Below are positions 11,685 to 43,545 of a DNA stretch of 45,476 nucleotides, one piece after another; position 1 is the stretch's first letter, and every line of letters starts with the position of its first letter. This DNA is from Armatimonadota bacterium (lineage in GTDB: Bacteria > Vulcanimicrobiota > Xenobia > RGZZ01): positions 1 to 45,476 of the forward strand of contig VGFD01000002.1 in the NCBI GenBank assembly GCA_016868975.1. The letters run 5' to 3'. The notes beneath the pieces are model-generated. The model was not told where the DNA came from. It was given only the letters and a program-made list of their open reading frames with translations, and ran no database searches. The position numbers and the translations under genes are program-made.

Positions 11685-11716
11685 ATGATAGACCCGGGAC
11701 CTGAAGGGAACCTGAA
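11685..11716 (-). promoter_or_regulatory. Promoter TTCAGG-N5-TTCAGG-N9-TATCAT upstream of the giant gene
   Basis: Perfect 7-bp direct repeat TTCAGGT with 11-bp period over the -35 region. The same geometry recurs at 30713 and 43514. Confidence 0.65.
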
Positions 11717-11839
11717 TTGGCCATGGCTCGGGCGTTGTCCTTGTACTCCCTCCCGTCGCGTTGGCCAGACGGGTGCGGTTCACGGGGCGCCCGCGCGCTC
11801 CTGGAGGCATCTCTCTGACAGGTTCGAACTACCGTGGGC

Positions 11840-14332
11840 ATGAGTGAGGCCACGGTATCCCTGGTAGTACACGGCTCGCACGAAACCCGCGAGTACCCTC
11901 TGGAGCCGGGGCGGCGCGTCACCATCGGCGCTGACCCGAGCAACGACGTTGTCATCGGCGAGGACGGCGTGCAGCCTCGCCACGCCGCCATCGAGTGGGA
12001 CGATGAAGGACCGGCCGTCGTCGACGTCGCCGCCCCCACCGACGTCTTTCTGAACGGGCAGCGGGTGGCCCGCGGCCCCCTGGAGAACGGCGACTTCATC
12101 AAGCTGGGCACCGCGCGGCTGGTGTTCCACGAGAGCGCGGCCGTGAGCGGCGCCGCGCTGCGCGGAACGGTGCGCGGGCGCGTCGTCCGCGTCGTCCTGG
12201 AGTCTGACTGCTTGCGCATCGGGCGCGGCGGGGACAACGACGTCGTGCTCGACCATCCCCAGGTGGCGCGCCGTCACGCCCGCGTCGAGAGGACCGCCGG
12301 GGGCTGGACGCTGCTCGACGAAAAGGACATGTACGGCACCTTTCTCAACGGCAAGCGGCTGGACGGCGCCGCGCCGCTCCAGGAAGGGGACCGCTTCACC
12401 ATCAGCGCGTTCCACTTCCGCCTGGTTGGCGACGCGCTGGAGTATTACAGCGAGGCGGGCAATGCGCGGGTGGACGTGCTCAACGTGCAGCGGGTGGCGG
12501 GCGGCAGCCGCATCATTTTGCACGACGTGTCGTTGTCGATTTACCCGCGCGAGTTCGTGGCGCTGGTGGGCGCCTCCGGCGCCGGCAAGAGCACGCTGAT
12601 GAACGCGCTCTCGGGATTTCGACCAGCGGATGCGGGCCGTGTTCTTCTCAATGGCACCGACTACTACGCGCACTTCGACAGTTTCCGCGCGAGCCTGGGA
12701 TTCGTGCCCCAGGACGACATCATCCACCGCGAGCTGACCGTGGAGCGCGCGCTTCATTATGCCGCCTGCCTGCGCCTGCCGGAGGACTCTTCCGAGGAGG
12801 AGCGGGCCCAGCGCATCAACGAGGTGCTCCACGATCTGCACCTGACCGAGCGCCGCGACACGCCCATCGCCAATCTTTCCGGAGGCCAGCGAAAGCGGGT
12901 CAGCATTGGAGTGGAGCTGCTCACCCGGCCGCGGATATTCTACCTGGACGAGCCCACGTCGGGCCTCGACCCCGGCATGGAAACCGAGCTGATGCGGATT
13001 TTCCGCAACCTCGCCGACAAGGGCCACACCCTGGTGATCGTCACCCACGCGACGAAAAACATCACGCTGTGCAACAAGATCGCGTTCATGGCCGAGGGGG
13101 GATATCTGGCGTTCTACGGCTCGCCGCAGGAGGCCCTGGAATTTTTCCGGGCCGACGACTTCAGCGACATCTACTTGAAGATCCAGAATGAGAGGACGCC
13201 GGAGCAGTGGCAGAACGAATATCGCGCGTCCCCCTACTACCAGCGCAACGTAGGGAACCGGCTGGCCGAAGTGGAGACCCTGGCCCGCGAGGCGGCCGCC
13301 GAAGCGCGCGAGGAAGGCGCCGTGGAGCGCGCCGCGCCGCGGGCCTCCGCATTGCGCCAGTACGGTATTCTCACCCGGCGCGCTCTCGAGATTCACCTGC
13401 GCGATCGGGGGAACCTGGGGATCTTGATGGGCTCGGCGCTCTTGATCGCGCTCTTGATCCCGTTTCTGTTTCCGGACCCCAACCTGCTGCAGCCCTTTGT
13501 GTTCGCGGATTTCAATTTTCCGCCGGCCGCCGACGGTCCGCGCGATCCGTCGTCAATTACGGACAACTACGGCAAGGCGCGCCAGATCGTGTTTTTCACG
13601 ATTATCGCCGCCATTTTCTTCGGCGTGAACAACGCCATCCGCGAGATCGCCCGGGAGATTCCAATCTATCGGCGCGAGCGCACGGTCAACTTGCAGATAC
13701 CTCCTTACGTGTTTTCCAAGCTGACCGTGATGGCGGCGCTCTGTCTGACGCAGGTTGCTTTGCTCACGCTGGTCATCGGTTTCCACCTCAAGGTGCCGGA
13801 GGCGAGCCCGCTGTTTTATGCGAAGCTGCTCGCCCTGCTCTGGCTGGGCTCGCTGGCCGCGATGGCCATGGCGCTCGCTTTTTCCGCGTTTGCCAGCAAT
13901 GAGAACAAGGCCGGCTCGGCGCTGCCGGTGCTGATCATACCGCAGATATTCCTGACCGGCATTTTTCCTCGCCTGACCGGGACGGCCGCGCTGGTCACCA
14001 ACTTCGGGCTGACCAAATGGATGTATGAGACTCTCCACCACCACCTGCGGCTCTGGAACATCTTTCCCTCGCCGCAGACTATCACCAATCCGCAGGTTGG
14101 GGCCGGCCTGCAGATGATGGCCAACGACGCCAGCGTCGATTGCGCGGTCATTCCCTGCAAGGCTCAGATGGCGCTGGCCGACCTGCAAGACCTGATCGAC
14201 GCCGGGGCGAAAGCCATGCCGCCGCCGGGCTATTCCTACCTCCACTACATGACCGTGTTGCTGGGCTTCTTCGTGTTTTTCACCGCGCTCACGTGCTGGT
14301 TCCAAAAACGCAAGGACTGGCAGCGGGATTAG
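11840..14332 (+). CDS. FHA-FHA-ABC ATPase-ABC2 permease fusion (Rv1747-like architecture)
   Basis: Two FHA folds (IGxxxxNDVV...HA...FLNG), GASGAGKS, LSGGQRKR, LDEPTSGLD, C-terminal TM helices with RER motif. The start could be GTG 11834. Confidence 0.92.
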   Translation: MSEATVSLVVHGSHETREYPLEPGRRVTIGADPSNDVVIGEDGVQPRHAAIEWDDEGPAVVDVAAPTDVFLNGQRVARGPLENGDFIKLGTARLVFHESAAVSGAALRGTVRGRVVRVVLESDCLRIGRGGDNDVVLDHPQVARRHARVERTAGGWTLLDEKDMYGTFLNGKRLDGAAPLQEGDRFTISAFHFRLVGDALEYYSEAGNARVDVLNVQRVAGGSRIILHDVSLSIYPREFVALVGASGAGKSTLMNALSGFRPADAGRVLLNGTDYYAHFDSFRASLGFVPQDDIIHRELTVERALHYAACLRLPEDSSEEERAQRINEVLHDLHLTERRDTPIANLSGGQRKRVSIGVELLTRPRIFYLDEPTSGLDPGMETELMRIFRNLADKGHTLVIVTHATKNITLCNKIAFMAEGGYLAFYGSPQEALEFFRADDFSDIYLKIQNERTPEQWQNEYRASPYYQRNVGNRLAEVETLAREAAAEAREEGAVERAAPRASALRQYGILTRRALEIHLRDRGNLGILMGSALLIALLIPFLFPDPNLLQPFVFADFNFPPAADGPRDPSSITDNYGKARQIVFFTIIAAIFFGVNNAIREIAREIPIYRRERTVNLQIPPYVFSKLTVMAALCLTQVALLTLVIGFHLKVPEASPLFYAKLLALLWLGSLAAMAMALAFSAFASNENKAGSALPVLIIPQIFLTGIFPRLTGTAALVTNFGLTKWMYETLHHHLRLWNIFPSPQTITNPQVGAGLQMMANDASVDCAVIPCKAQMALADLQDLIDAGAKAMPPPGYSYLHYMTVLLGFFVFFTALTCWFQKRKDWQRD

Positions 14333-14353
14333 ATTGGGTGTACAATAGCCAAC

Positions 14354-19711: not shown

Positions 19712-19732
19712 TAGAACAGGGAGGTCACACAC

Positions 19733-21171: not shown

Positions 21172-21297
21172 CAGGGATCCGCAGCCCGTTGTCTGAGCGC
21201 CATGCAGGGATCTTTCGCCGCCCTTGAGGGCGCGCCTGCAAGCGCGCCTTGCCGTTGAAATGAAATTAGCGTGCGCGTCGAGAAAACAAAGGACACC

Positions 21298-22359
21298 ATG
21301 GCAGGCCAATTTGAATTGCGCATCCGCGCCGGGCGCGACTGGGCCGCGCCGCTTGAGGGCACTCGTATCGTGATCGGCTGCGATCCCTCGTGCGACGTCG
21401 TATTGCCGGACGACGGCCGCACCGCGCGTCGCCACGCCATCCTGCACCTTGCGCCCGAGGGCCCCTCGCTGGTGGATCTGCAAACCACCAGCGGCACGCT
21501 GCTCAACGACGTGCCAATTTCCAACGCGGGACTGGTACACCTTGACCGCATCGGCATCGGCGGGGCCATCCTGGTATTTCGCGACGCCGGGCGGGAAATC
21601 GATCCCGACGAGATGGCCGATCTGCTGCGTCACGAGGGCATCGTCGCGGCCGGCTCATTTGCGTGGCCGGGCATTTCGCTGGTGCCCGTCGAGCCGGTGG
21701 CTGACGACGCGGCGATCATCCGGCGCCTGGCGGATATTGCCCGCGAAAATGACGAAATGCGGGCCCGCGCCGAACGCGAGGCCGAAGCCGGCGGGCGCTT
21801 CGTGGGCGCCGTCGGCCGTCGCGTGGTCGACGCCGTCCGCAATGGCGCGCTGCACTTTACGCCGCAAGGCCGCGCCGACGATCTCACCATCTTGTTCGCC
21901 CGCTTGCACGCCTTTGAGGAAAATCCGCTCGACACTTTGCCCGCGCGCCTTAACGCGATTTTCGAGGATCTCGCGGATCGCATTTTCGAGCACGACGGCG
22001 TGGTCTGCCAGTTTTTGAAACACCGCCTGCTGGCACTTTTCGGAGGCCCCTGGACCACGTACGCCGCCGACGAAGCCGCGCGCCAGGCGGTTCGCGCCGC
22101 CGCCGCCATCGCGCCGCTTGGAGCGTGCGTCGGCATGGCTTGCGGCCCGGTCCGCCTGGGACGGGTCGGCGCGCGACGGCGCAGCACCGTGTCCGCGCAG
22201 GGAGACGCGGTCAACGTGGGCGCGCGCCTGTGCGGGCTGGCCGCGCCCGGGGAAATCCTCGTCTCGGCGCCGCTGGCCGATCGCCTCGGCACGACGCTCA
22301 CGCCGCGCCACGGCCTGACCCACAAGTCCGGTGAGCCGCTCCCGGCGTTCGTCCCGTGA
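21298..22359 (+). CDS. FHA plus degenerate class III adenylate/guanylate cyclase
   Basis: N-terminal FHA fold. Cyclase TILFARL (D lost), VCQFLKH (vs DKFIGD), GDAVNVGARL retained. RBS AAGGA before ATG 21298. Confidence 0.8.
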   Translation: MAGQFELRIRAGRDWAAPLEGTRIVIGCDPSCDVVLPDDGRTARRHAILHLAPEGPSLVDLQTTSGTLLNDVPISNAGLVHLDRIGIGGAILVFRDAGREIDPDEMADLLRHEGIVAAGSFAWPGISLVPVEPVADDAAIIRRLADIARENDEMRARAEREAEAGGRFVGAVGRRVVDAVRNGALHFTPQGRADDLTILFARLHAFEENPLDTLPARLNAIFEDLADRIFEHDGVVCQFLKHRLLALFGGPWTTYAADEAARQAVRAAAAIAPLGACVGMACGPVRLGRVGARRRSTVSAQGDAVNVGARLCGLAAPGEILVSAPLADRLGTTLTPRHGLTHKSGEPLPAFVP

Positions 22360-22688
22360 GCGGGCCGTGGACGCTGCTCTACGTGCGCTCTTCACGCGGC
22401 ATCCGCATGCGCCGGGTAGCCATCCCCGCCCAGGGAGTTGCCGTCGGCTCGAATCCCAAAGGAGGCCTTGCGCTTGACGCGGACGGCGCGGTGGACGATC
22501 GACATTTCGAAATCACGCTGGACGCGGGCGGCCCGCTCTTGCGCGCCCACGGTCCGGTGCGGGTTAATGGCAATCTCGTGGAAGGAGCCCGCCTGCGCCA
22601 CCTCGATCGCATCGAAGCCGGCACCTCGCGCCTCGTCCTCTACGACGACGCGGCCGCGCCCGCGCCGCGCCGGGCCGCACGGGCGCTG
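22356..22688 (+). pseudogene. FHA-domain gene truncated at its 3' end
   Basis: GTGA overlap with the cyclase gene. FHA-like VGS...RHFEI...VRVNG...LRHLDRIEAG, then the frame runs into the antisense of a prepilin start. Confidence 0.55.
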
Positions 22689-22745
22689 GACACCGGCCGC
22701 GATGAGCAGCTCGAGCATGGAGAAGCCGCGGCGGCGAGTTCTCAC
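22689..22745 (-). pseudogene. 5' remnant of a PilV-like prepilin
   Basis: GTG 22745 is coupled to TGA 22744-22742. It reads RTRRRG-FSMLELLIAAGV, then the hydrophobic helix breaks off. Confidence 0.65.
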
Positions 22746-23092
22746 AAGTCGCCCCCGATCCGGGCCGTCCCGCTCAGAGGCTCGCCGCTGAGCGGGACGC
22801 GCTGCTCCTGGTGGCCGGCTCGCACCGAACAATACGTCGGCCTTCTCGAGCAGACCACCGAGAGGCGCAGCTCAAACGCGCCGTCGGCGGAGATCGGCTT
22901 GCGGACGTCGAGGGGGATTTCCGGAAAGTGGAAGTCGACCACCGTCTCGCCCACGTCAGCCACGTCCCGCACCACGATCTCGAGGGGACGCGAGGAACGC
23001 TGCTCGGGTCGGCCGCCCGCGAACGCAAAGAGCGCGGCGATCACGAAGCCGAGCAGCAGGACGGCGGCCAGGATTCGGCTTTTCCGCTTCAC
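22742..23092 (-). CDS. Small membrane-anchored or exported hypothetical protein
   Basis: GTG 23092 with RBS GAGGAG. KRKSR followed by hydrophobic ILAAVLLLGFVIAALFAFA. Confidence 0.6.
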   Translation of the reverse strand: MKRKSRILAAVLLLGFVIAALFAFAGGRPEQRSSRPLEIVVRDVADVGETVVDFHFPEIPLDVRKPISADGAFELRLSVVCSRRPTYCSVRAGHQEQRVPLSGEPLSGTARIGGDL

Positions 23093-23220
23093 GGCGGCTC
23101 CTCGCGCTGGGATTTTTCCCATCGTAACAGGGGCCGCCGGGGCACGAAGTGATCGGAGACACTTTCACCACGCGTGTCATCAGGTGGAATATAGCAATCG
23201 TCGTGTCGAATTTCTTTCCG

Positions 23221-24302
23221 ATGCAGGAAACCCGCCCGTCATGGCTGCAGCGCAGGCGCATTCCTGCGTCGCTGCTCATCCCGTACACCCGGCAGTTGGC
23301 CACCATGCTGGCGGCCGGGGTGCCCACCCCCGCGCCCTCGACGGCATGGCGCGCACCGGGGACAACCTCGTGCTGAGCGCGGTGACGCTGGAGCTGAGCG
23401 CGGCGGTGGCGCGCGGCTTGAGCCTGTCGCAGGCGCTCGCCATGTACGGGCGGGTGTTCCCGCCCATTTTCGTGGCCATGGTGCGGGCCGGGGAGGAGGG
23501 CGGATCGCTGCGCCGCACCCTCACCCAGCTCGCGGACTGGATGGAGCGGGACGACCGCGCGGCGCGCCGTCTCAAGGCCACGATGGTTTATCCCGGATTC
23601 GTGGTGGCGCTCACCGCGGCGCTCACGCTGGCGTTGTTCTACTGCGTGCTTCCCCGGTTCGTGGACATCTTCAACGACATGGGCGTGACCCTCCCGGTAA
23701 TCACCCGCGGGCTCATGGAGATCACCCGGGCGGTCCGCAATCCGTGGGCGTGGCTGGCGGTGGCCTGCCTGGCCGGCGCGGGTGCGGCCGGGCTGCGTGC
23801 CATGCGCGCGGATCCTGGCGGGCGCCTCCGTATGCAGGCGCTGTCGTTTCGGATTCCGCTGGTGGGACCGCTGCTGGAGCGCAGCACGCTGGCCCGCTGG
23901 TGCGCGATGGTGAAGCTCATGCTGGGCTGCGGCGTGGGCCTCGTCCCCACCCTGCAGATCGCCGCGCTGGCCAGCGGGAGCGCGGTGCTGCAGGCGGACG
24001 CCCGCTCGCTGGTGGACGCGGTGACCAGGGGCCTCACGCTCAGCCAGGCGATGCAACGCCGCCCGCGGATTTATCCCGCGCTGCTGGTCTACATGGCGCG
24101 GGCCGGCGAGGAAACCGGCGACCTCGGGGAAATGTTCGGACACGCGGCGGTATTTTATGACCTCGACGTGGCGACGCGGCTGGAGATTTTGACGGCGTCG
24201 CTGGAGCCGCTGCTGCTCAGCGCGATCACCATCGGCGTGGGCGCGCTGGTGATCGCGATTTTCGTGCCGATATACGGGATGGTCCGCACGGTGGGGCCGT
24301 GA
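23221..24302 (+). pseudogene. PilC/GspF platform protein, frameshifted (or sequencing error)
   Basis: YTRQLATMLAAGVP in one frame, and RALDGMA...VRAGEEGGSL...AGEETGDL...LEP in another. One extra C in the C5 run at 23327-23331 restores 360 aa. Confidence 0.8.
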
Positions 24303-24308: not shown

Positions 24309-24602
24309 TCAAACGCGAGCCTTCCAGTCGCGGGGATTTCGCCGCCCGTGCATGACTGCGATGACCGCAATGCGTTCGCGCTCTTCCACGAAGAACACGG
24401 CGTACGGGAAACGGTGCATCAGCGCGCGCCGTACATCGGGATGCACTCTCGGATAACGGGCCGGATTCATCTCAATGGCATCGAGTGTAGTAAGAAGCTC
24501 GTCGAGGAATTGCTGTCCGAGAAGTTGCGCTTGCCGCTCATACCAGACCGAGGCCTCCTCCACGTCCCATTCGGCTTCAGGGAGGAGATAGGATGGCCTC
24601 AC
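24309..24602 (-). CDS. RelE/ParE family toxin
   Basis: EAEWDVEEASVWYE...RRALMHRFPYAVFF...VIAVMHGRRNP. Confidence 0.9.
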   Translation of the reverse strand: MRPSYLLPEAEWDVEEASVWYERQAQLLGQQFLDELLTTLDAIEMNPARYPRVHPDVRRALMHRFPYAVFFVEERERIAVIAVMHGRRNPRDWKARV

Positions 24603-24808
24603 AGACGCTTTCGAATCTGCTCAATTGCCTCTCGGGCCGGTCTGCCTGGGGAACCGCTTGAACGGTAGGTTTCGAGGCGTCGGTCAAGCTCGCGTTTTTG
24701 CTCCTCGGTCAGAGGCAAGGCATTCTGGTCCACGGCAATGCTGTCCCAGATATCTTCCACGAGCTGGATTCGTTCGGATACCGGCAGGTCGCGAATGCTC
24801 TGATCCAT
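24599..24808 (-). CDS. Addiction-module antitoxin (TIGR02574-type)
   Basis: LPVSERIQLVEDIWDSI...LTEEQKRELDRRL. The ATG overlaps the kinase stop (TGATG). Confidence 0.9.
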   Translation of the reverse strand: MDQSIRDLPVSERIQLVEDIWDSIAVDQNALPLTEEQKRELDRRLETYRSSGSPGRPAREAIEQIRKRL

Positions 24809-26226
24809 CAAACTGAGGTTCGCTCTGGCGGGTCGGTTTCCTTTGGCAGCCAGAACACGAACGTGGCGCCGCCGCCCGCGGTGGGCTCGACGCGGATCTC
24901 GCCGCGGTGGGCTTCCACCAGGCCGCGCGTGATCCACAGACCCAGGCCGCTCCCCTCGCGGGCCGTGGTATCGCCGATGCGCTGGAACGGATCGAAAATC
25001 CGCTCGCGCTCTTCCGCGGGAATTCCGGCCCCGTGATCCACCACCCGGAACACCACCGCGCGATCGGTTTCCTCCGACTCGACGATTACCTCACGGCCGA
25101 TCGGCGCATATTTTATTGAGTTGGACAAAAGATTGGTGAAAATCTGCCGCAGCTTGGCCGGGTCCGCCGCCAGCGCCTCGCAGCGCACCTTGTTGGCGAT
25201 GACCGGACGGTTTGTTGCTTCGGTGGCTTCTCCGATGAAAGCAATTTCCTCGTCCACAATCATTCGGGGGTTCACCTGGCTGCGATGCGTCTTGAAGCTC
25301 GGTGACGGCGTGGCTTCGGCGGAGGTCTGGCGGGCGGCCTCGAGATAAGTGTCCACCAGCGACCGCGCGCGCCGAGCCGCGTCGGAGATCTGCTCGATGA
25401 GCCGCGAGCGCTCGGCCGGTTCCTCGCTGTGGTCCGCGGCGTAGGCGGCCATCATGATCACGCTCAGGGGATTTTTTAGATCGTGCGCGGCCACTTGCAG
25501 GCTGTCCGACATGGCGGCGCGCTGCGCCGTGACCTCGCGCGCCTCCAACTGTCTGCGGCGGGTTTCCTCGCGCAATTGATCGGCGTGCAGGGCGGCGGCG
25601 AGCAAGGCGCCGATGGCTCGAATGAAGGGGAAATCATCCCTGGTGAGCGGCATCTCGGGCGCCGGCGTGTCCACGCAGAGCACGCCGAGAATTTCCTCGC
25701 GCGCGATGAGCGGCACGTAGATGGCTGTCTGGATGCGGTTGAGCACCACGCTGGGCGCGTCGCTCACCGCGGCGTGCTGGCTCGATCCCTGGAAAAAGAA
25801 CACCGCGTTGCCCGACTCCACCGCGTAGCGCGCCATGGAGGCGCTCACCGGGCTCCTGGGCAGTCCCTCGCGGCGCAAGACCGCCTCCGGGAGGAGCGAG
25901 CGCAGCCCGAGCACCGGGTCGGGCGGCCATTTCGCCACCGTCACCCGCTGGGCCGAGGGCACCACGTCAAAAATGCGGCGCAGCGCCGTGGCCATCAAGT
26001 CGAGGCCCTCGCAGCGCAGCATCTGCTGCGCGATGTCGGAAAGCGCCTCGACGGCGGTCTGGGCCAACGCGCCCTCGCGGACGATGGCGCCGACTTCCGC
26101 GGACGTGGCGTCGGCCTGCGCGCTCACCATGACGTCGGGATTCATGCGCCAACTGGGTTCAACGGCCAGGGCGGGCTTGCCTGTCGGTCGGGCAGTGACG
26201 CCCCACGGGGAGGATGTCGAGGCCAC
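24808..26226 (-). CDS. Cytoplasmic GAF-domain sensor histidine kinase (start uncertain)
   Basis: GAF (IYVPL...LGVLCVD), H-box AHDLKNPL, N-box NLLSNSIKY, DHGAGI, FDPF, GSGLGL. Confidence 0.9.
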   Translation of the reverse strand: MASTSSPWGVTARPTGKPALAVEPSWRMNPDVMVSAQADATSAEVGAIVREGALAQTAVEALSDIAQQMLRCEGLDLMATALRRIFDVVPSAQRVTVAKWPPDPVLGLRSLLPEAVLRREGLPRSPVSASMARYAVESGNAVFFFQGSSQHAAVSDAPSVVLNRIQTAIYVPLIAREEILGVLCVDTPAPEMPLTRDDFPFIRAIGALLAAALHADQLREETRRRQLEAREVTAQRAAMSDSLQVAAHDLKNPLSVIMMAAYAADHSEEPAERSRLIEQISDAARRARSLVDTYLEAARQTSAEATPSPSFKTHRSQVNPRMIVDEEIAFIGEATEATNRPVIANKVRCEALAADPAKLRQIFTNLLSNSIKYAPIGREVIVESEETDRAVVFRVVDHGAGIPAEERERIFDPFQRIGDTTAREGSGLGLWITRGLVEAHRGEIRVEPTAGGGATFVFWLPKETDPPERTSV

Positions 26227-27947: not shown

Positions 27948-28000
27948 GAAGAGGTGACACCCCCCGGTGTCGCCAACTATTGCCCAGGAGGCCGATTTCG

Positions 28001-28636: not shown

Positions 28637-28639
28637 GAC

Positions 28640-30709
28640 TCACACGGGGTCGACCGGGATCGACAGTGAGATCCTTCCGCGGTCCACCTCCACGGCCACG
28701 ATCTCCACCTCGATGACCTCCCCTACGGAGAGGCTCTGCCCGTGGGGAATTCTCGTGCGGTGCACGAGGCCGTCCTGCTTGACGCCGATGTCCACGAAGG
28801 CGCCGAAGTCGACGACGTTGCGCACCGTGCCGCGCAGTTGCATCCCCACCCGGAGATCCGAAGCGGACAACACGTCGCGGCGCAGCAGTGGGCCCGGCAC
28901 GTCCTCGCGGGGATCGCGGCCGGGACGGGCGAGTTGTTCGAGGATGTCGCGCAGCGTGGGCACGCCGCAGCCCAGCACGGCGGCCAGATCCTCCGCGCGC
29001 TGGCCGGTGGGGCGTTTCATCACCTCGCGCGCCACCGCGTAGCTCTCCGGATGAATCGCGGTGTTGTCGAGCGGCTCCTTGCCTCCGCGCACGCGCAAGA
29101 ATCCAGCCGCCTGCTCGAACGCTTTGGGCCCCAGCCCGGCTACCCCCAGAAGGGTTTGGCGGCTGTTAAAAGGGCCGTTTTTATTCCGATGGGCCACGAT
29201 TTTCTCGGCTAATTTCGGACCCACGCCCGCCACGTGGGTGAGCAGGGCGGGGGAGGCCGTGTTCACCTCCACCCCGACGCGGTTCACCACGCTCTCCACC
29301 ACGCCGTCCAGCGCTTTCTTCAGGTTGCCCTGCTCGAGGTCGTGCTGGTACAACCCCACGCCGATCGACTGCGGATCGATTTTCACCAGTTCGGCCAGCG
29401 GATCTTGCACCCGCCGCGCGATCGACACCGCGCCCCGCATGCTCACATCGAGGTCCGGCAATTCCGCGCGGGCCAGCGGGCTTGCCGAGTACACGCTGGC
29501 CCCGGCTTCGTTCACCATTAAATAGTGCACCTTTGGAAAATCCGCCAGCAGTGCCGCGACGAGCGATTCTGTTTCCCGCGACGCCGTTCCGTTGCCGATG
29601 GCCAGCAGCGTGCCGTGGTGACGCCGCAGCAGGCCGGCCAGTGTCTGCAGCGCATCCTCGCGGCGATTTTGCGGGGGATGTGGATACATCGTGGCGGTGT
29701 CGAGCACCTTGCCGGTGGGATCTACCACCGCGACCTTGCAGCCGGTGCGAAACCCTGGATCGACGCCCAGCACCACCTGCCCGCCCAGCGGCGGCTGGCC
29801 GAGCAGCGCCCGCAGATTCTCCCCGAACACCGCGATCGCATGGGCCTGCGCATGCTCGGTGAGCGCGCGGCGCACGTCGCGCTCAATGGCGGGCAACAGC
29901 AGGCGGTCGGCCGCGTCCTCGACGGCGAGGCGCAGTTGCTCGCTCCAGGGGGATCGCGTGTCGGGCCGGAAGTCGGCCGCAATGGCGTCGCGCCAGTCGC
30001 GCTCGGGGACCACGATCTTCACGCGCAGCACCTTCTCCGCCTCGCCGCGGTCCATCGCCAGGATTTGATGGGGTCGCAGGCGCGAGACGCCCGCGTTGAA
30101 GGAATAGTAGTCGCGGAAGACCTGTCGCTCGTCCTCGGACCTGGGCGCGCGCGCGCATTCGATCGACGCGAAGCGGAGCGCCTTGTCCCGCAGCCTGCCG
30201 CGCACGTCGGGATGGTCGGCGATGATCTCCGCCACGATGTCGCGGGCCCCGGCCAGCGCGGCGTCGCTGTCCGCGACCTCGTCGCCCAGGTAGCGCCGGG
30301 CGGCCTCCGCGGGTCGGCTGTTGGGCGGCTGTTCGATTATCTGGCGGGCCAGCGGCTCCAGCCCGCGCTCCCGGGCCACCGTGGCGCGCGAGCGGCGCTT
30401 CGGCCGGTACGGCGCGTACAGATCCTCCAGCGCGGTGAGCGTCTCCGCTTCGTGAAGGCGCTTGCGGAGCGCGTCGCTGAGCTTTCCCTGCTCTTCGACG
30501 GAGGCTTCGATGGCGGCGCGCCGCTGTTCGAGCGCGCGCAGTTGCCCGATGCGGTCGATGACCTTGCGCAATTGCTCCTCGTCGAGCCCGCCGGTCGCCT
30601 CCTTGCGGTAGCGCGCGATGAAGGGCAGGGTGTTTCCGGCGTCAAGCAGGTCGGCGGTGGCGGCCACCTGCTGCGGGCGAACGTTCAGCTCTCGGGCGAT
30701 GCGGTCCAT
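28640..30709 (-). CDS. tex: Tex family RNA-binding transcription accessory protein
   Basis: PFIARYRKEATG, GVDPGFRTGCK, EAGASVYSAS, GVGLYQHD, HhH, C-terminal S1 (FGAFVDIG). Confidence 0.96.
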   Translation of the reverse strand: MDRIARELNVRPQQVAATADLLDAGNTLPFIARYRKEATGGLDEEQLRKVIDRIGQLRALEQRRAAIEASVEEQGKLSDALRKRLHEAETLTALEDLYAPYRPKRRSRATVARERGLEPLARQIIEQPPNSRPAEAARRYLGDEVADSDAALAGARDIVAEIIADHPDVRGRLRDKALRFASIECARAPRSEDERQVFRDYYSFNAGVSRLRPHQILAMDRGEAEKVLRVKIVVPERDWRDAIAADFRPDTRSPWSEQLRLAVEDAADRLLLPAIERDVRRALTEHAQAHAIAVFGENLRALLGQPPLGGQVVLGVDPGFRTGCKVAVVDPTGKVLDTATMYPHPPQNRREDALQTLAGLLRRHHGTLLAIGNGTASRETESLVAALLADFPKVHYLMVNEAGASVYSASPLARAELPDLDVSMRGAVSIARRVQDPLAELVKIDPQSIGVGLYQHDLEQGNLKKALDGVVESVVNRVGVEVNTASPALLTHVAGVGPKLAEKIVAHRNKNGPFNSRQTLLGVAGLGPKAFEQAAGFLRVRGGKEPLDNTAIHPESYAVAREVMKRPTGQRAEDLAAVLGCGVPTLRDILEQLARPGRDPREDVPGPLLRRDVLSASDLRVGMQLRGTVRNVVDFGAFVDIGVKQDGLVHRTRIPHGQSLSVGEVIEVEIVAVEVDRGRISLSIPVDPV

Positions 30710-30712
30710 GCT

Positions 30713-30744
30713 TTGAGGTTTTTTTCAGACGTTTGCGGTACCCT
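30713..30744 (+). promoter_or_regulatory. Promoter TTGAGG-N5-TTCAGA-N9-TACCCT
   Basis: Same spacing as the 11716-11685 and 43514-43545 motifs. ATG 30753 follows 8 nt later. Confidence 0.6.
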
Positions 30745-30752
30745 GCTCCTTG

Positions 30753-31304
30753 ATGGACGCTATCGGCAATCAAAGAATCACTGCCCGCCTGAACGTGGCG
30801 AACGCCTTTGCCACGCGGGGCGGCTTTCCCACCGCTCCCGACCTGGGCGGCTTCGTCAGCCTTGCGGACACGGTGTGGCTTACCCCGCCGCCCGCGATGC
30901 CGATGTCCGACGCCGACCTGAACGCCTTCCTGAGCAAGATGCGCGAGATGAAGCAGCAGGCGCTGCGCGACCGCGCGCTGCGCGGCGGCTCGCCCGGCGG
31001 GCCGGTCAACCCGGAGAAGGACAAGGAGAAGCAGGGTCCGCTCGACGTGAAGGCCCACGGATACTACGAGGGCGACAAGTTGATCGCGGTGCGCGAGATC
31101 CGCGTGTTCGAAGTGGGAAATTATCGCAAGCGAACTTACAACACGTTCCCCGGCGGCTGGCCGGACAACTCGCTGCGCATGGACAACGCGCGGGTTGGAA
31201 AAACCTACCGCGTGAAAGTGACCTGGGAGAACGGGACTAGCCAGGAAAAAGACGTTGCCATGGATTCTCCCAACGGCACCAGCGTCGACGTCTGGAAATA
31301 CTGA
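30753..31304 (+). CDS. Hypothetical protein, flexible N-terminus and beta-rich C-terminal domain
   Basis: MDAIGNQ...ADTVWLT; C-terminal YRVKVTWENG. Coding-like codon bias, no signal peptide. Confidence 0.7.
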   Translation: MDAIGNQRITARLNVANAFATRGGFPTAPDLGGFVSLADTVWLTPPPAMPMSDADLNAFLSKMREMKQQALRDRALRGGSPGGPVNPEKDKEKQGPLDVKAHGYYEGDKLIAVREIRVFEVGNYRKRTYNTFPGGWPDNSLRMDNARVGKTYRVKVTWENGTSQEKDVAMDSPNGTSVDVWKY

Positions 31305-31313
31305 TCGCGCCAA

Positions 31314-31688
31314 TCAGGTTTCGGAATCGCTGCGGTTGCGCTGAATGAACTCCGCCCAGCGCTTTTCAATTTCTGGGGACAGCTCGTTGAATTGCAGGCC
31401 GCCCACAAATTGACGCTCGCCTTCAGTGTTGAGCCACACCACATGGCCGTGCATGGAAACCGGCTTTGACTCCGGCGACAGCACCACGAAGAGCGTGACT
31501 TCCTCGTTGACGTACACCGGGTGCTGGCTGACGAAGCGCATCCCGCCAACGCTGACATCGTCGGTGAAAATGTTGAAGTCCTCGCCGCGCTGGCGACACA
31601 CCACGCCGAGAATCATGCGGATCCGCTCGAACTCCCGCTGCTCGGAAACCTCAGTGGTGGGCTCCTCCTGGCGCCGGAACCACTTCAT
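31314..31688 (-). CDS. Single-domain PilZ protein
   Basis: RxxxR (REFER) and DxSxxG (DVSVGG) motifs, G-x-VVW, GLQF. Confidence 0.88.
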   Translation of the reverse strand: MKWFRRQEEPTTEVSEQREFERIRMILGVVCRQRGEDFNIFTDDVSVGGMRFVSQHPVYVNEEVTLFVVLSPESKPVSMHGHVVWLNTEGERQFVGGLQFNELSPEIEKRWAEFIQRNRSDSET

Positions 31689-31689
31689 C

Positions 31690-31983
31690 TCACACGCTTG
31701 CCTCCTTGAAGTGCTTTACGAACAAATAGTCCTTTTCGAGATACTCGCGCGCGGCCTCGATAAGGGCCTCGTTGGTGATGCGGTCGTCCACCGCGATGAC
31801 CGCCGCGAAGATGGCGGAGCGATCCAGGTAGCGGCCCCTGGTTTCCTCATCGCGGGCCAGTTCCTCGACGCGTGTCTTGATGTTGCGCAGCACTTCCTTC
31901 TCTTCGGGGGACACCGAGGCCATGCACTGACCGAGCCGCTCTCCGGCGGTTTCCAGCTCGTTCTGGTACGGATTCTCTGACAT
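31690..31983 (-). CDS. Small hypothetical helical protein
   Basis: MSENPYQNE... with RBS GAGGAG. Its stop lies 1 nt before the PilZ start. Confidence 0.7.
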   Translation of the reverse strand: MSENPYQNELETAGERLGQCMASVSPEEKEVLRNIKTRVEELARDEETRGRYLDRSAIFAAVIAVDDRITNEALIEAAREYLEKDYLFVKHFKEASV

Positions 31984-32045
31984 GCTGCGCTCCTCTCGTG
32001 GTGGGGCTGACGGCTTCCCGCTGGGGAGCCGCGTTCGGCCCCTGT

Positions 32046-32891
32046 TCAACGCCGCGCCGAAGGTTCCCCCCACTGCGGCGCGCCGGGCGGCGGCACCCGA
32101 CAGGCCGGGGGATAGTCCACGCGCACCAGACACAGTCCCTGGGGGGGCGCGGGCGCCGACGCCTGCCGCGCGTCGCGTCCGCGTAGCACGCGCGCCGCGG
32201 TGCCCGGGGGACGCCGCCCGGCCGCGACGTCCACCAGCGTGGCCACCAGCATCCGCACCATGCGGGGAAGAAACGCGTCCGCCTCGATCTCGAGATGCCA
32301 CAGGGGCAGGCGCTCGACGAGGTACGACGGGGATGCCGCCCCCGGCGCGAGCCGCCGCCATTCGAGCCGGTGGATGGTCCGGAAGTAGTGCTTGAGGTCC
32401 TCCCCGCCGCTGCAAAACGCGCGGAAGTCGCGCCGGCCCAGGAGCGCGGCCCCCTCACTTTGCAGCAGGTCGAAGTCAATCTCGCGGGAATAGTGCCACG
32501 CGCGCTGGGCCACCACGGGCCGTGGGGTGGCAGCCACCAGCAGGTGATACTGGTAGGTGCGGCGCGAGGCGCTGTGCCGCGCGTGGAACCAGGGCGGCGC
32601 TTCCCAGGCGTGGCGCACCCCGATGCGCCCGTGCGCGTTCCGCACCAGGGCGCGCACCAGCGTGTCCAGGGGGCGCGCGGACTCGGTCCGCACGTGCACC
32701 ACCTGTCCGGTGGCGTGCACCCCCGCGTCGGTGCGCCCGGCGCACACCACGGTGACCGGCTCGTCGAGCACCTCCGAGCAGATGTCCTCCAGCAGGCCCT
32801 GCACGGTGGGGATGGCGGGGTCCTTCTGGCGCTGGTAGCCGAGAAATCCGCCGCCGTCGTACTCGATCCGCATGGCGATGCGGCGGGTCAC
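32046..32891 (-). CDS. truA: tRNA pseudouridine(38-40) synthase
   Basis: YDG..F.GYQ.Q, AGRTDAGVHA.GQV, FHAR, DF..F, FL..MVR, APPQGLCL..V.Y. GTG overlaps the ecfT stop. Confidence 0.95.
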   Translation of the reverse strand: MTRRIAMRIEYDGGGFLGYQRQKDPAIPTVQGLLEDICSEVLDEPVTVVCAGRTDAGVHATGQVVHVRTESARPLDTLVRALVRNAHGRIGVRHAWEAPPWFHARHSASRRTYQYHLLVAATPRPVVAQRAWHYSREIDFDLLQSEGAALLGRRDFRAFCSGGEDLKHYFRTIHRLEWRRLAPGAASPSYLVERLPLWHLEIEADAFLPRMVRMLVATLVDVAAGRRPPGTAARVLRGRDARQASAPAPPQGLCLVRVDYPPACRVPPPGAPQWGEPSARR

Positions 32892-33688
32892 GGGAGCCAC
32901 GGCGTTCCGGCCAGCAGCAATCCCCCGAGCAGCAGCGCGAGGACGTCGGTCCAGCGGAACTCCAGGCCCACCATGCGGGTGCGTCGGACGCCGCCGCGGT
33001 AGCAGCGCGCCTCCATGGCGACGGCGAGATCCTCGGCCGCGCCGAACGCCTGCACGAAGAGGGGGACCAGTACCGGGACAAGCACCCGCGCGCGGCCCAG
33101 CGGCCCGCCCTGGTCGAAGCGGGCGCCGCGGGCCATCTGCGCCTTGATGATGCGCTCGGCGCACTCCACCAGCGTCGGGATGAAGCGCAGCGCGATGCTG
33201 GTCATCATCGCGAGCTCGGTGGTCGGCACGCGCAGGATGCGCAACGGGGCCAGCAGTTTTTCCAGCGCGTCCGTCATGCGAATGGGGGAGGTGGTCAGGG
33301 TGAACAGCGAGGTGAGCAGCATCAACAGCGAAAGGCGGGCGGCCATGAGGCCGGCCTGGGACACGCCGTCCTGGGTGACGCGCAGCGGTCCCAGGGCATA
33401 GAGGAGCGGACCGCCGCGGACCAGCAGCATGTTGAACGCCACGGTGATGGCCAGCAGCATCGCGATGGCCCGCAACCCGCCCAGGAAATAGCGCGGCGTG
33501 AGCCCGGCGGCGAGCGCTCCGGCCACGCACCAGACGAGCATGGCGGCGAGAGACGCCGGGCGGCTCACGTTGAAAGTGACCACCATCGCCGCCACCAGCA
33601 GAAATATCTTGGTGCGTGGATCGAGCCGATGCACGGGACTGTCGCCCGGCACGAACTGACCCACGGTCACGTGCCGCATCAGTTCCAC
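32888..33688 (-). CDS. ecfT: ECF transporter transmembrane component T
   Basis: GQF.PG.S.VH.LDPR.K, IALRFIPTL, AQMARG, AMEARCY. Confidence 0.95.
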   Translation of the reverse strand: MELMRHVTVGQFVPGDSPVHRLDPRTKIFLLVAAMVVTFNVSRPASLAAMLVWCVAGALAAGLTPRYFLGGLRAIAMLLAITVAFNMLLVRGGPLLYALGPLRVTQDGVSQAGLMAARLSLLMLLTSLFTLTTSPIRMTDALEKLLAPLRILRVPTTELAMMTSIALRFIPTLVECAERIIKAQMARGARFDQGGPLGRARVLVPVLVPLFVQAFGAAEDLAVAMEARCYRGGVRRTRMVGLEFRWTDVLALLLGGLLLAGTPWLP

Positions 33689-33764
33689 GGCGGCAGCCTT
33701 TCAACGAACCTTCGCCGCTTTCCTCATGCCGTGCTACATTGTTTCTTCTGTGGAGGTTTGAGCC

Positions 33765-34119
33765 GTGAAACTGGATCATCTGCACCTGCACTCCGCCGAT
33801 CTTGGCGCAGCCCAGGGGTTCTACGAGAAATGGTTTGGCTTCCGGAAGTGCCCCCACGAAGAGCCGATGCTTTCCTGAAGAATCCGGACGGATTCTTGCT
33901 GGCAATATTTCCCACCGAGGCTGGCGAGCGGCCGATTCCGGACTGGTTTCACTTCGGGTTTTCGCTGCCGTCGGGCGCGCAGGTCGAGGCGCTTTACGAC
34001 GAAATGAGGGCGGCTGGCGTGAAATCACCAGCCGCGGCCTGATGCGCTTCGATGACGCCGTCACGTTCTACTGTATGGATCCCGACGGCCACAAGGTCGA
34101 AGTGCGCTGGGAGGCCTAG
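33765..34119 (+). pseudogene. VOC/glyoxalase family gene with two 1-nt deletions (or sequencing errors)
   Basis: GTG with RBS GGAGG. LDHLHL...FYEKWFGF / FLKNPDGF...FHFGF / FYCMDPDGHKVEV lie in three frames, with breaks at 33871-33873 and 34021. Confidence 0.85.
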
Positions 34120-34160
34120 TCACGGGTGGCCGCCTGCGGTTTATCTCCAGCGTAGGGCTC

Positions 34161-35132
34161 TTATTTGACTACTTTGTAGGTCACGGTGCTCAGCCCGTAC
34201 ACCGCGTCCCGCGGGTTGAAGCGGGTGTTCGGGCCGATGCTCTTGTAGCGGGTGGACATCTGGCTGGCGCGCTCGGCGATCATTTTCTGGATCGCCTTGG
34301 CGGTGTCGGTCACGAACTCGTCGGAGGACGCGACCGGAATGACGCCGCCCTCTTCCCACGCCTCTTCGCGCGCGGCGGTAGTGGCTGGCGGCTTTGAAGC
34401 CTGGGGTTTGGCGGCCTGGGGCTTCGCGGCCTGGGGGGCCGGCGGCTTCGCGGGCTGCGGCTTGGGCGCCGGGGGCGTCGCGGCCGGCGGCTTCGCGGGA
34501 GGAGGCGGCGGCGCGGCCGGGCCGTCGGTTTCAAACTCGTCGGAGGCGACGACCGTGGACGTCGTGGCGTTGGCCTGCGGTTTGGGAGTCTGCACGGTGG
34601 CCGGGCGCGTCGGGGACGGAGCCGGCGGGCGCGGCGTCGAAACCGGCGCGGCCGTCTGCGGGCGGGGCTTGTTGGCCATGCCGCTGATCTTGTGGAAGGC
34701 GGCCATGTCCAGGGGTTTCTCGGTGGCGATGACCTGAATGGTTTCCTTGCCGACCGGGCCGTATTGTCGCAGCAGTTGTCCCGCGTTGTCCCTCAGGTGG
34801 AACGCCTCGCCGGCCTGCACTCGATTTTCGGAAGAGAACGGGCTCGGGCAGATGATGGACGTCTGTCCTTTGGAATTGATGTAATAGAGCACGATGTAGC
34901 AATCGCGCGCCGCGGTGATGGTGACGTCCATCTCGTCGCCGATGCGGTACACCGGCTTGTTCGTCTTCAGGGTCACCGGGAAGCGCGCCCACCTGTTTGC
35001 CTGGCTGGCCAGCGCCGGTTGGGCTCCGATGTTCTTGGTGTCGATGGATTTCTCGGTAACCATGGCGGGCGCGGCATAAGCGGCGCCGCTGGCCCATGCG
35101 GCCAGGAGCAGGCTGAGCAGAAACTTCTTCAA
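34161..35132 (-). CDS. Secreted DUF4384-like protein with Pro/Ala-rich linker
   Basis: TTG 35132 with RBS AGGAGG and Sec signal KKFLLSLLLAAWASGAAYA. YRIGD...DCYIVL...P...GKETIQVIAT..PL. Confidence 0.75.
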   Translation of the reverse strand: MKKFLLSLLLAAWASGAAYAAPAMVTEKSIDTKNIGAQPALASQANRWARFPVTLKTNKPVYRIGDEMDVTITAARDCYIVLYYINSKGQTSIICPSPFSSENRVQAGEAFHLRDNAGQLLRQYGPVGKETIQVIATEKPLDMAAFHKISGMANKPRPQTAAPVSTPRPPAPSPTRPATVQTPKPQANATTSTVVASDEFETDGPAAPPPPPAKPPAATPPAPKPQPAKPPAPQAAKPQAAKPQASKPPATTAAREEAWEEGGVIPVASSDEFVTDTAKAIQKMIAERASQMSTRYKSIGPNTRFNPRDAVYGLSTVTYKVVK

Positions 35133-35274
35133 GGTGTTGACCCTCCTTTTCGGGGCGACTGTCGCCACCACCCCTTTGACGCGAATCGCGCATGTTTCTT
35201 GCACGTCGCCGGATCTCCTCGCCCCGGCCTTTAGCCGCAGGATTCGACTCAAGGCGCGCGAAGATTGGCGCCGC

Positions 35275-36138
35275 ATGTTGACCCGACGTCGATACTTCAA
35301 CGCGATCTGCGCGGTACTCTACGTCCTGCTTGGCCTCCCCGCGGCCGCGCAAGTGGACAAGCGCTCGGTCATTGAGGGCGGCAAGCGCGTCGGAACCTAC
35401 GAGCTTGGCAAGAAGTGGTCGGCCTATGAGAAGGTCCTCGGGACGCCCAGCAAGACGCAGCAGTCCGAGAACGCCGAGAACGCCCGTCTTGTGGTCTACA
35501 AGCAATACGGCATGGGCTTCTTCGTGAAGAAGGACCTGGTGAACGGCATGTACGTGGACAGTCCCCTCTTCGTGACGGTGGAGGGAGTGCGCGTGGGGAT
35601 GCCCAGCAGCGGCGTCGAGAAGGCCTACGGCGCGCCCGAGCGGGTGGACGACAGATACGTCCGCTATCCCGAGAAGGGCCTCGCGTTTTATTTCGACAAG
35701 GGAAAGGTGACCCACATTTACGTCTTCGACAGGGAAGAGCGCGATCTGGCCAGCGGAGATCGCCGCATCGTGCCCGGCTCGCGGGTCGGCGGAATTCAAT
35801 TAGGCACCAGCCTCGACTTCGTCCTCAAGCAGTGGAAGAACCCGACGCGCCGCGGTCCGCTGCCCTCCAAGAAGGGCGCCGAGCTGTGGTCCTACCAGCG
35901 GCACGGGGTGATCGTGGTGGCCTACGAGGGCCGCGTGGACGGCGTCTGGATATTCAACCCTGAATTCCGCACCGGTAAGGAGATTCACGTGGGCAGCGCG
36001 CGCAACGAGGTGGTTGCGGCCTACGGCAAGGCCGACCGCAAGGAAGAAGAAATGGAGATTTACAGCAAGCTTGGCCTGGGTTTCCTCTATAAGGAAAACG
36101 GCAAGGTTGGACAGATCATGGTCCTCGAAACGGAATAA
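35275..36138 (+). CDS. Exported hypothetical protein with internal duplication
   Basis: Signal MLTRRRYF...LPAAA. Repeated I.[EP]G.RVG...LG and G..VG.....V..AYG units. Confidence 0.7.
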   Translation: MLTRRRYFNAICAVLYVLLGLPAAAQVDKRSVIEGGKRVGTYELGKKWSAYEKVLGTPSKTQQSENAENARLVVYKQYGMGFFVKKDLVNGMYVDSPLFVTVEGVRVGMPSSGVEKAYGAPERVDDRYVRYPEKGLAFYFDKGKVTHIYVFDREERDLASGDRRIVPGSRVGGIQLGTSLDFVLKQWKNPTRRGPLPSKKGAELWSYQRHGVIVVAYEGRVDGVWIFNPEFRTGKEIHVGSARNEVVAAYGKADRKEEEMEIYSKLGLGFLYKENGKVGQIMVLETE

Positions 36139-36152
36139 CAGGAGGCTAGAAA

Positions 36153-42408: not shown

Positions 42409-42428
42409 CGACCGGCCGACTCACGGCG

Positions 42429-42516: not shown

Positions 42517-42531
42517 GTGCCCAGCGTCGGA

Positions 42532-43434: not shown

Positions 43435-43459
43435 GGAGAGATCCCTCCTTTCCTCTCCC

Positions 43460-43505
43460 AGCATATCCCGAGTCGCGGCGCGACGGAATGCCCGTCATGT
43501 TAACA
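43460..43505 (-). promoter_or_regulatory. Promoter with -10 TATGCT and upstream TGTTAACA palindrome
   Basis: GGGATATGCTG and ATGTTAACA are both shared with the 5308-5363 promoter. Confidence 0.45.
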
Positions 43506-43513
43506 ACCGGCGT

Positions 43514-43545
43514 TTCATGAGTTTTCCAGGCCGATTCCCTACCAT
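43514..43545 (+). promoter_or_regulatory. Promoter TTCATG-N5-TCCAGG-N9-TACCAT
   Basis: Same spacing as the motifs at 11716-11685 and 30713-30744. Confidence 0.6.

Follow-up and report, generated by a model that had tools for sequence, protein, structure and literature searches.

Three genes in a 45,476-nucleotide stretch of DNA from an Armatimonadota bacterium (contig VGFD01000002.1, hereafter the window) are preceded by promoters of one and the same build, in which two direct repeats of a TTCAGG-like hexamer at an 11-bp phase are followed at a fixed distance by a -10 element. The window is the entire contig C2 of its source assembly, G000 (GCA_016868975.1), a metagenome-assembled genome of 6.10 Mb, 956 contigs and 65.9% G+C with a completeness of 93%. 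Here, we show that the three window sites are members of one class of about 125 promoters in G000, and that this promoter class is conserved in most of the 44 genomes of the taxonomic class to which the bacterium belongs. Judging from their sequence, these are probably activator-dependent promoters to which a regulator of the OmpR/SARP type binds in tandem, and we put forward, more tentatively, one SARP-type response regulator encoded outside the window as that activator. A sequence-only reading of the window had described the three genes as a set of effectors controlled by one activator or alternative sigma factor. The architecture that it proposed, with phased direct repeats in the place of the -35 element, is real; its three-gene regulon has instead become about 125 sites on 107 contigs.

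A promoter class with tandem repeats

The degenerate pattern of the sequence-only reading matches three times in the window against 0.00 expected in 100 shuffles, a circular comparison as the pattern was written from these very sites. Over the whole genome it matches five times, and the two matches outside the window, on contigs C247 and C492, also lie upstream of genes with Shine-Dalgarno-like sequences. We built a matrix of 40 columns, seeded with 39 sites of spacers 5 and 9 and taken through four iterations, which converged on the consensus tTTCAGg-aWTTT-TTCAGg-N9-TAnnMT, with an identical consensus in both repeats. At a score of at least 18 bits the matrix recovers 128 sites in G000, compared with 3 in a size-matched order-1 Markov genome, and at a score of at least 20 bits the counts are 107 and 0. 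The motif is therefore well above background, and the expectation that it would enumerate a dispersed set of genes genome-wide was borne out. A k-mer enrichment of upstream regions was uninformative, as A/T words dominate it.

The spacing of the three parts is rigid. TTCAGG pairs (at most 2 mismatches in 12) followed by TAnnnT were counted over a grid of repeat spacers from 0 to 15 and -10 spacers from 4 to 15, in which the N5/N9 combination gave 39 matches and each of the other 191 combinations 0-10. A single exact TTCAGG ahead of TAnnnT peaks at N9 (33 occurrences) and at N20 (20, representing the distal repeat), with 1-13 at the other distances. Position relative to genes is equally marked: the -10 hexamer falls in non-coding DNA, which makes up 14.6% of the genome, at 83 of the 128 sites, and a same-strand gene start follows within 160 nt at 83 of the 128, compared with 6.1% of 5000 random positions. 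Among the 77 sites that score at least 20 bits and carry TAnnnT, an ATG or GTG lies 6 nt past the -10 at 14 sites and 7 nt past it at 10, with 1-6 at each other offset between 3 and 11. Such a peak indicates, if indirectly, that transcription would start about 7 nt downstream of the -10, the distance that the sequence-only reading had set as a check, and that many of the mRNAs would be leaderless, beginning at the start codon itself.

Canonical promoters of G000 provide a useful reference. TTGACA-N17-TAnnnT has 54 exact matches, with 26 at N18, 11 at N16 and 1-10 at other spacers. T at -3 before TAnnnT occurs at a frequency of 0.36 in 77 promoters of the repeat class and in 113 TTGACn-N17 promoters alike, G at -2 occurs at 0.64 and 0.50, respectively, and the leaderless peak is present in both; the hexamer interior is more G+C-rich in the repeat class than in the canonical class. 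Measured from the -10, the proximal hexamer lies at 9 bp and the distal one at 20 bp, neither of which suits a -35 element (16-19 bp), and a generic sigma-70 scan called no promoter at any repeat site. The repeats thus replace the -35, and because the extended -10 context (TGnTAnnnT) equals that of canonical promoters, the sigma factor is probably the same for both.

Conservation was assessed with a strict pattern (at most 1 mismatch) and its reversed form as a control. Strict matches number 14 in G000, 4 and 9 in its relatives of family f1, 1 in f2, 24-66 in the five genomes of f4, 2-58 in the 16 genomes of f5, and 1-7 in genera g12 and g13 of family f3. Three other genera of f3, g5, g6 and g11 (14 genomes, 1.9-3.5 Mb), hold 0-2, and the other classes of the phylum mostly 0-2 with a maximum of 7 in family f13; the reversed control gave 0-2 in all genomes searched with the strict pattern. 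Under a looser pattern, the counts against the reversed form were 4 vs 4 (G004), 8 vs 8 (G009), 14 vs 11 (G006) and 14 vs 12 (G008) in g5 and g6, and 12 vs 0 in the motif-positive G074 of g12. By extrapolation from 66 strict matches against the 14 of G000, the largest (9-Mb) relatives may carry several hundred such promoters.

Retention of the promoter ahead of homologues of one window gene, gene 30753, is what we regard as the strongest single indication of the function of the element. The gene family has a match in 28 of the 44 genomes. Among its short homologues (197-376 aa, families f1 and f5), 12 of 13 have a repeat promoter directly upstream, and the homologue promoters, scored with a matrix built from G000 alone at the 19 non-self loci examined, reach 13.9-31.7 bits. 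Six long homologue ORFs (open reading frames; 564-693 aa) have only the C-terminal domain in common with the family and no repeat promoter.

Read directly in the sequence of the window, the promoter of the gene for a 1557-aa protein occupies 11685..11716 on the minus strand (TTCAGG-ttccc-TTCAGG-tcccgggtc-TATCAT; repeats at 11716-11711 and 11705-11700, -10 at 11690-11685), that of gene 30753 occupies 30713..30744 on the plus strand (TTGAGG-ttttt-TTCAGA-cgtttgcgg-TACCCT), and that of a gene for a beta-propeller-like protein occupies 43514..43545 on the plus strand (TTCATG-agttt-TCCAGG-ccgattccc-TACCAT). All three strings had been located correctly by the sequence-only reading, each just upstream of the ORF that it named. 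Counted among the 137 G000 sites of at least 16 bits, they score 28.9 bits (rank 39), 35.3 bits (rank 3) and 31.9 bits (rank 19), respectively; the first is an exact match to TTCAGG-N5-TTCAGG-N9-TAnnnT. At the density of the whole genome, 45.5 kb would hold 0.95 sites, and the three observed represent a mild excess (Poisson P = 0.07). A fourth, weak matrix match at 49-80 on the plus strand (19.0 bits, TTCAGG-ctctg-TCGAGC-N9-TAACCT) lies where the contig begins, is followed by no plausible gene and is probably a false positive. An Rfam search of the window returned no match.

The ORF map bore out that the three genes stand alone, and reading of their N-termini that the products lack signal peptides. 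The 1557-aa protein is encoded at 6983..11656 on the minus strand, its ATG at 11656 lying 28 nt past the -10 with GGAG in between. Its translation is Pro/Ala/Thr-rich over residues 1-75, and it has no Pfam family above cut-off (TPR-S is sub-threshold only). One homologue occurs in the taxonomic class, in G072 at 37% identity, and the 1.5 kb ahead of it contain no repeat promoter; G092 has a partial homologue, which carries a repeat promoter of 28.1 bits. Gene 30753 (30753..31304, plus strand) encodes a 183-aa protein, and because its ATG lies only 8 nt past the -10 its transcript is predicted to be near-leaderless. The promoter fills the 43-bp gap to a divergent Tex-like gene with its start codon at 30709. 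In the AlphaFold model, residues 1-51 have a pLDDT under 50 and residues 91-183 one of 84-92, so that the model consists of a C-terminal beta-sandwich, predicted with confidence, and a single helix, with the N-terminus disordered. It has no Pfam family, and Foldseek against the PDB returned only generic beta-sandwich rows (Ig/CBM/FnIII-like), the best at E = 2.7e-3 and none at or below 0.001. The 518-aa beta-propeller-like protein is encoded at 43572..45128 on the plus strand, with its ATG at 43572, 26 nt past the -10, and AAAGGA before it. Its WD40/PD40 matches are all sub-cut-off, and structure rows from the Atlas are propeller-like at TM scores of 0.41-0.54. It has no relative at E ≤ 1e-10 in 42 of the 43 other genomes of the taxonomic class, which by sequence comparison marks it as a true lineage orphan. 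The description of all three genes as orphans accordingly fits the propeller gene and very nearly the giant gene; it fails for gene 30753 with its relatives in most genomes. Flexible N-termini, also ascribed to all three, are apparent in the giant and the 183-aa protein and not evident in the propeller.

Several further features were noticed around these sites. Directly after the propeller gene and before an ORF at 45180 stands a near-consensus canonical promoter, TTGATA-18-TATAAT (11/12; 45140-45169, plus strand). A ParE-toxin/'Unstab_antitox' addiction-module pair (24309-24937, minus strand) lies directly 3' of a histidine kinase gene (24808-26226). Two GspF/PilC-like genes (22356-24302 and 26316-27947), whose T2SSF domains follow N-terminal extensions of about 330-410 residues, have an FHA-domain gene (21271-22359) and one for PilZ (31314-31688) in their neighbourhood. 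A prepilin-type regular expression gave 7 matches. Elsewhere in the genome, canonical TTGACA promoters (e.g., on contigs C41, C588 and C138) seem to be accompanied by another upstream motif, GTTAACAT(C); it is strongly position-specific, with 15-22 occurrences at -39 to -31 from TAnnnT against a median of 1. At C937:1330 and C44:3686, the leaders and start regions that follow the repeat promoters are almost the same (…cgaggagcggcctcATGatctcca), which indicates a putative promoter-gene unit that was recently duplicated. Some strong sites (e.g., C182:4867) precede short ORFs absent from our home-made gene calls. In family f15, three loci (L132, L140 and L143, in genomes G140, G058 and G130) have conserved TTCAGG-N5-TTCA(T/C)G-N9-TAnnnT promoters, which precede TAT-signal HiPIP-like genes and lipoprotein genes.

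The candidate activator

Our reading of the promoter class as a whole, which we consider probable, is the following. A pair of heptads, (T)TTCAG(G), at an 11-bp phase and with an A/T-rich spacer between them, stands in for the -35; the proximal heptad ends 8-9 bp before the extended -10, TGnTAnnnT. Two winged-helix protomers of the OmpR/SARP type would bind next to each other on the same DNA face, where the -35 would otherwise be, and would recruit RNA polymerase with a housekeeping-type sigma factor. Transcription would then begin about 7 nt past the -10, often at the start codon itself, yielding leaderless mRNA. The sequence-only reading had left the choice between an activator and an alternative sigma factor. 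An OmpR/PhoB-like winged-helix activator is the best reading, and an alternative sigma is unlikely given the canonical -10 context.

This geometry has close counterparts. The direct repeats of AfsR lie 8 nt before the -10 and overlap a -35 at 20-bp spacing, with two AfsR DNA-binding domains placed side by side and described as 'resembling OmpR family regulators' (PMC11301090), and the 11-bp unit of the classical SARP site is composed of a heptamer and 4 nt (PMC10972967). Heptameric 11-bp direct repeats at 8 bp from the -10 are thus shared with the SARP promoters of Streptomyces (AfsR at afsS; ActII-ORF4; DnrI), as far as these sources describe them. Here, TTCAGGn is followed by 8 nt and TAnnnT, and the distal hexamer lies 20 nt from the -10, as in the SARP geometry. 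The repeat itself differs, being TCGAGXX in the classical SARP site and TTTCAG(G) here. Streptomyces SARPs act at few, cluster-situated promoters, whereas there are about 125 per genome here, many of them leaderless and with binding predicted. The host is not an actinomycete, and a WhiB-like regular expression gave 0 matches. Class II activators such as PhoB, CiaR, PhoP and WalR likewise share the 11-bp tandem repeats, the A/T-rich spacer, the replaced -35 and the fixed distance to the -10. The CiaR site is given as TTTAAG-N5-TTTAAG with the -10 ten nt downstream (PMC3091779), and its hexamer TTTAAG is one base off the TTTCAG found here. Literature searches returned no match on response-regulator promoters with TTCAGG direct repeats and no related work on HD-GYP + BTAD response regulators.

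As the activator we propose an 812-aa protein encoded at G000:C233:5631-8066 (the C233 protein), an identification made from sequence that may well prove wrong and that we hold with less than even confidence. It combines a REC receiver, an HD-GYP-like domain, TPR repeats, a predicted winged helix-turn-helix (wHTH) and a BTAD domain, the last two making up a SARP module similar to that of AfsR and EmbR; the module is C-terminal, behind the receiver and the HD-GYP-like domain, unlike in Streptomyces SARPs. The Asp, Thr and Lys positions of the receiver are kept, and in the HD-GYP-like domain HD is intact and GVP replaces GYP. BTAD is recognized above cut-off (PF03704 at C233:7632-8051, E = 6.5e-22) and is precomputed on relatives too, and over its C-terminal 273 aa the protein is similar to the SARP part (wHTH and BTAD) of AfsR (E = 1.3e-5; query residues 51-262 aligned with chain residues 69-273) and of EmbR (E = 1.9e-4). 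Were this protein the activator, the programme would come under phosphorylation control and possibly under cyclic-nucleotide control.

The distribution of the C233 protein follows that of the motif. Matches at E ≤ 1e-40 occur in 30 of the 44 genomes, 25 of them full-length at 47-71% identity, and orthologues are split or cut in three genomes (G002, G003 and G080). Ortholog-level matches (45-78% identity) are present in 28 of the 30 genomes of f1, f2, f4, f5, g12 and g13, and no orthologue was found in g5 (0/10), g6 (0/2) or g11 (0/2), the genera without motif enrichment in the genomes tested, so that the two presence splits are equal. In g12 and g13 the C233-type protein is the sole full-length BTAD match; a second, weaker BTAD-like protein seems to be shared with motif-negative genomes. 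BTAD proteins number 11 in G000, 8-30 in the complete genomes of f4 and f5, 2 in g12 and g13, and 0-1 (weak) in g5, g6 and g11; at the stricter threshold of this search, 1 of 14 control genomes matches. Across 16 orthologues, the wHTH (residues 561-640) has a mean column identity of 0.87, tied with receiver residues 41-80 and compared with 0.39-0.62 in the middle of the protein, in keeping with the conservation of the DNA motif itself between families. A global protein search placed the architecture in about 90 clusters, some bearing the JGI name 'response regulator RpfG family c-di-GMP phosphodiesterase/DNA-binding SARP family transcriptional activator'. Relatives at 47-49% identity come from Candidatus Xenobium sp., Ca. 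Xenobia and Ca. Eremiobacterota bacterium, and one is named 'Armatimonadetes'. Going by these names only, the taxonomic class is probably Candidatus Xenobia/UBP9 of Eremiobacterota. In the closest complete relative, the orthologue (G002:C713:4154-6521) lies in two overlapping frames (residues 1-458 and 477-812; 71-78% identity), as a result of either a frameshift or an assembly error.

Several observations weigh against the C233 protein or against the reading at large. PF00486 (Trans_reg_C) does not match the G000 protein, and its wHTH was deduced from the AfsR and EmbR matches and a paralogue alignment; PF00486 is precomputed on some of its more distant full-length relatives. The phyletic agreement amounts to about one evolutionary event, separating the reduced-genome clade g5/g6/g11 from the rest, and it is weak evidence because small genomes lack many things. 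G013 (35 strict matches, 90% complete) and G106 (24 matches, 64% complete) have only paralogue-level matches at 35-41% identity. No repeat promoter was found upstream of the C233 gene in 15 genomes, and there is thus no signal of autoregulation. About ten further BTAD proteins in G000, and up to 30 in other members of the taxonomic class, could each be the one that binds. A few conserved TTCAGG-N5-TTCATG promoters are also present in f15, and five f15 genomes are without the C233 candidate. Finally, G000 is a fragmented assembly with a contamination of 8.4%, and its gene calls and the signal-peptide rule used below are home-made and crude.

Other regulators of the OmpR type were considered. 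G000 encodes eleven canonical ones and several longer Trans_reg_C proteins, the longer ones being SARP-like (FHA, HD or HEAT with wHTH and BTAD); none of its 19 Trans_reg_C loci adjoins a motif site. The OmpR-type regulators of g12 were rejected as activators, as their three orthogroups all recur in motif-negative genomes, bar a long-branch singleton (G074:C74). The tree behind this result was built from the regulators of G000 and of five other genomes (two of g12, two of g5 and one of g6), and its G000_C274 row, a mis-extracted ORF, was ignored.

An alternative that we consider unlikely is that the activator is a classical OmpR/PhoB-family response regulator and the repeats a diverged Pho box, the two sequences being TTTCA and TGTCA. 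The leading candidate is a PhoB/WalR-like protein at G000:C25:195-929, which scores best against YycF, MtrA, PhoB and RpaB models next to a PhoR/WalK-like kinase (PnpS, WalK and PhoR models). This protein occurs in all 44 genomes at 70-96% identity, its recognition helix being invariant, as expected of a regulator with many sites, and phosphate scavenging would suit a regulon with two 5'-nucleotidases, two phospholipase D (PLD)-like proteins, a protein similar to monogalactosyldiacylglycerol (MGDG) synthase, and HAD and HD hydrolases. The same recognition helix, however, is found in C25-type regulators of g5 and g6, where the motif is no commoner than its reversed control. Neither PstS nor PhoU was found in G000, which thus differs from known Pho regulons in having no pst or phoU genes as an anchor, even with two 5'-nucleotidases as members. 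PstS (PF12849) is above cut-off in 2 of the 44 genomes, in neither case with a repeat promoter upstream of the gene, and no repeat promoter precedes the C25-type regulator in 16 genomes. The scarcity of PstS, with PhoU not found in G000, is odd in its own right for a free-living lineage with genomes of up to 9.5 Mb, as the two models match in 13 of 14 control genomes.

Regulon content and the remaining alternatives

The genes that follow the promoters describe the putative regulon. We show that this regulon is dominated by lineage-specific proteins without a Pfam family or a signal peptide, together with scattered hydrolases and lipid and nucleotide enzymes. Among 40 downstream proteins, 10 have a Pfam family above cut-off, compared with 13 of 20 random genes (Fisher's exact P = 0.0045; the 20 random gene calls include one chance regulon member, which was kept) and 9 of 10 unlinked window genes. 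The ten are two 5'-nucleotidases, a P-type ATPase, a class-2 lipase, a PLD-like protein, an MGDG-synthase-like protein, a PQQ-type propeller, a dCMP/MafB19-like deaminase, an eCIS_core (DUF4157) protein and a SprA-related protein. For a further 39 regulon proteins, 25 families with one member each were listed, among them GH10, RNase II, M4 peptidase, HAD, HD, a second PLD, GT5 (glycogen-synthase-like), GNAT, a uridine-kinase-like family, MFS and PilZ; this tally does not give the number of family-less members and was kept out of the enrichment test. No regulators were seen in the Pfam lists of these 40 and 39 proteins.

By a crude hydrophobicity rule, 5 of 79 regulon proteins have a signal-peptide-like N-terminus, compared with 21.6% of 3856 calls in the background; transmembrane-like segments are as frequent in the one set as in the other (32% and 31%, respectively). 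The regulon contains a few paralogous groups. Its median GC (0.671 vs 0.659 in the background) and third-position GC3 (0.854 vs 0.842) are native or slightly higher, and the genes are therefore not recent imports. A related-locus search with a regulon 5'-nucleotidase retrieved only three distant actinobacterial loci at 27-28% identity.

The term effectors, which the sequence-only reading had used for the products, has no support. We consider it quite unlikely that the genes form a small regulon of secreted or injected effectors, similar to the PmrA-controlled Dot/Icm effectors of Legionella and Coxiella; the PmrA site has a tandem-repeat form as well. A set that is mostly family-less and poor in signal peptides is consistent with such a view, as are toxin-like members such as the class-2 lipase, the PLD-like protein, the dCMP/MafB19-like deaminase, the eCIS_core protein and the M4 peptidase. 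In Legionella, effectors have been found by way of regulator elements (PMC2701608), and the PmrA/CpxR elements of the Dot/Icm systems resemble the present motif in that a response-regulator element stands before numerous scattered genes with poor annotation. Proposals made for a related, marine family in the same order, namely a predatory lifestyle and gene introgressions of actinobacterial type (PMC9259500), serve as context only. The set, however, numbers about 125 genes and not three, and unlike in the Dot/Icm case, searches of the 93%-complete assembly found no VirB4 (CagE_TrbE_VirB), no sheath of a type VI secretion system (VipB) and no sheath of a phage or extracellular contractile injection system (Phage_sheath_1), type III secretion systems not having been searched for. 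The host is a free-living lake bacterium by the labels of the sequencing runs that contain window positions 28000-36000; these are 14 DNA runs, marked lake water metagenome, with no RNA run among them. Members such as the P-type ATPase, the glycogen-synthase-like GT5, RNase II, the uridine-kinase-like protein, GNAT and the MFS transporter are housekeeping-like, base composition is native, and the conserved member, gene 30753, encodes a small beta-sandwich protein in which nothing points to an enzyme.

We regard it as very unlikely that an alternative sigma factor, and not an activator, recognizes the motif. A fixed spacing to the -10 and at least 100 promoters rich in proteins of unknown function do resemble general-stress sigma regulons, as is generally known of these, and the failure of the generic sigma-70 scan to call the repeat promoters points the same way. 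Yet the upstream element is one heptad directly repeated at an 11-bp phase, which argues for two copies of the same DNA-binding domain; its spacings to the -10 of 9 and 20 bp fall on either side of 16-19 bp; and the -10 with its TGn extension is identical to that of canonical TTGACA-N17 promoters. Dispersed copies of a repeat (a mobile-element end or REP-like sequence) or a compositional artefact, which many copies on 107 contigs might bring to mind, are hardly credible, given that the matrix columns beyond the 32-bp core carry no information and the motif is therefore not a dispersed repeat element, that sites are oriented by strand toward genes at fixed distances, that the Markov and reversed-pattern controls are near zero, and that the promoter is retained before orthologues of different families despite differing surroundings.

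Meaning for the lineage

The candidate phylum has one cultivated member (PMC9758169). Very little is known of how transcription is controlled in it, and a rigid promoter of about 30 bits, retained from family to family and standing before more than 100 genes per genome, is informative in this respect. The system differs from known ones in its scale of more than 100 promoters, its host lineage, the unusual domain fusion of the candidate regulator, the frequency of predicted leaderless transcripts and the lineage-specific regulon. It also names a concrete candidate for the regulator. SARPs are known as activators of antibiotic clusters in actinomycetes, as described in PMC11301090 and PMC10972967, and a SARP module that follows a receiver domain and serves a global regulon in another part of the bacterial tree would, if true, widen that picture.

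A further-reaching and speculative possibility, which we think has only a small chance of being right, is that one SARP-type response regulator with a degenerate HD-GYP domain is the master switch of a lineage-specific programme of about 100 promoters, which could be one of attack, predation or differentiation. If so, its targets would mostly be genes invented within the taxonomic class, among them proteins that lack a signal peptide and resemble lipases, phospholipase D, deaminases, proteases and nucleases, and the promoter motif would list the members of the programme in every genome of this uncultured class. At the level of the promoters themselves, the motif provides a means, from sequence only, to define a co-regulated programme, to annotate leaderless start codons and to group hundreds of proteins that are otherwise without a function.

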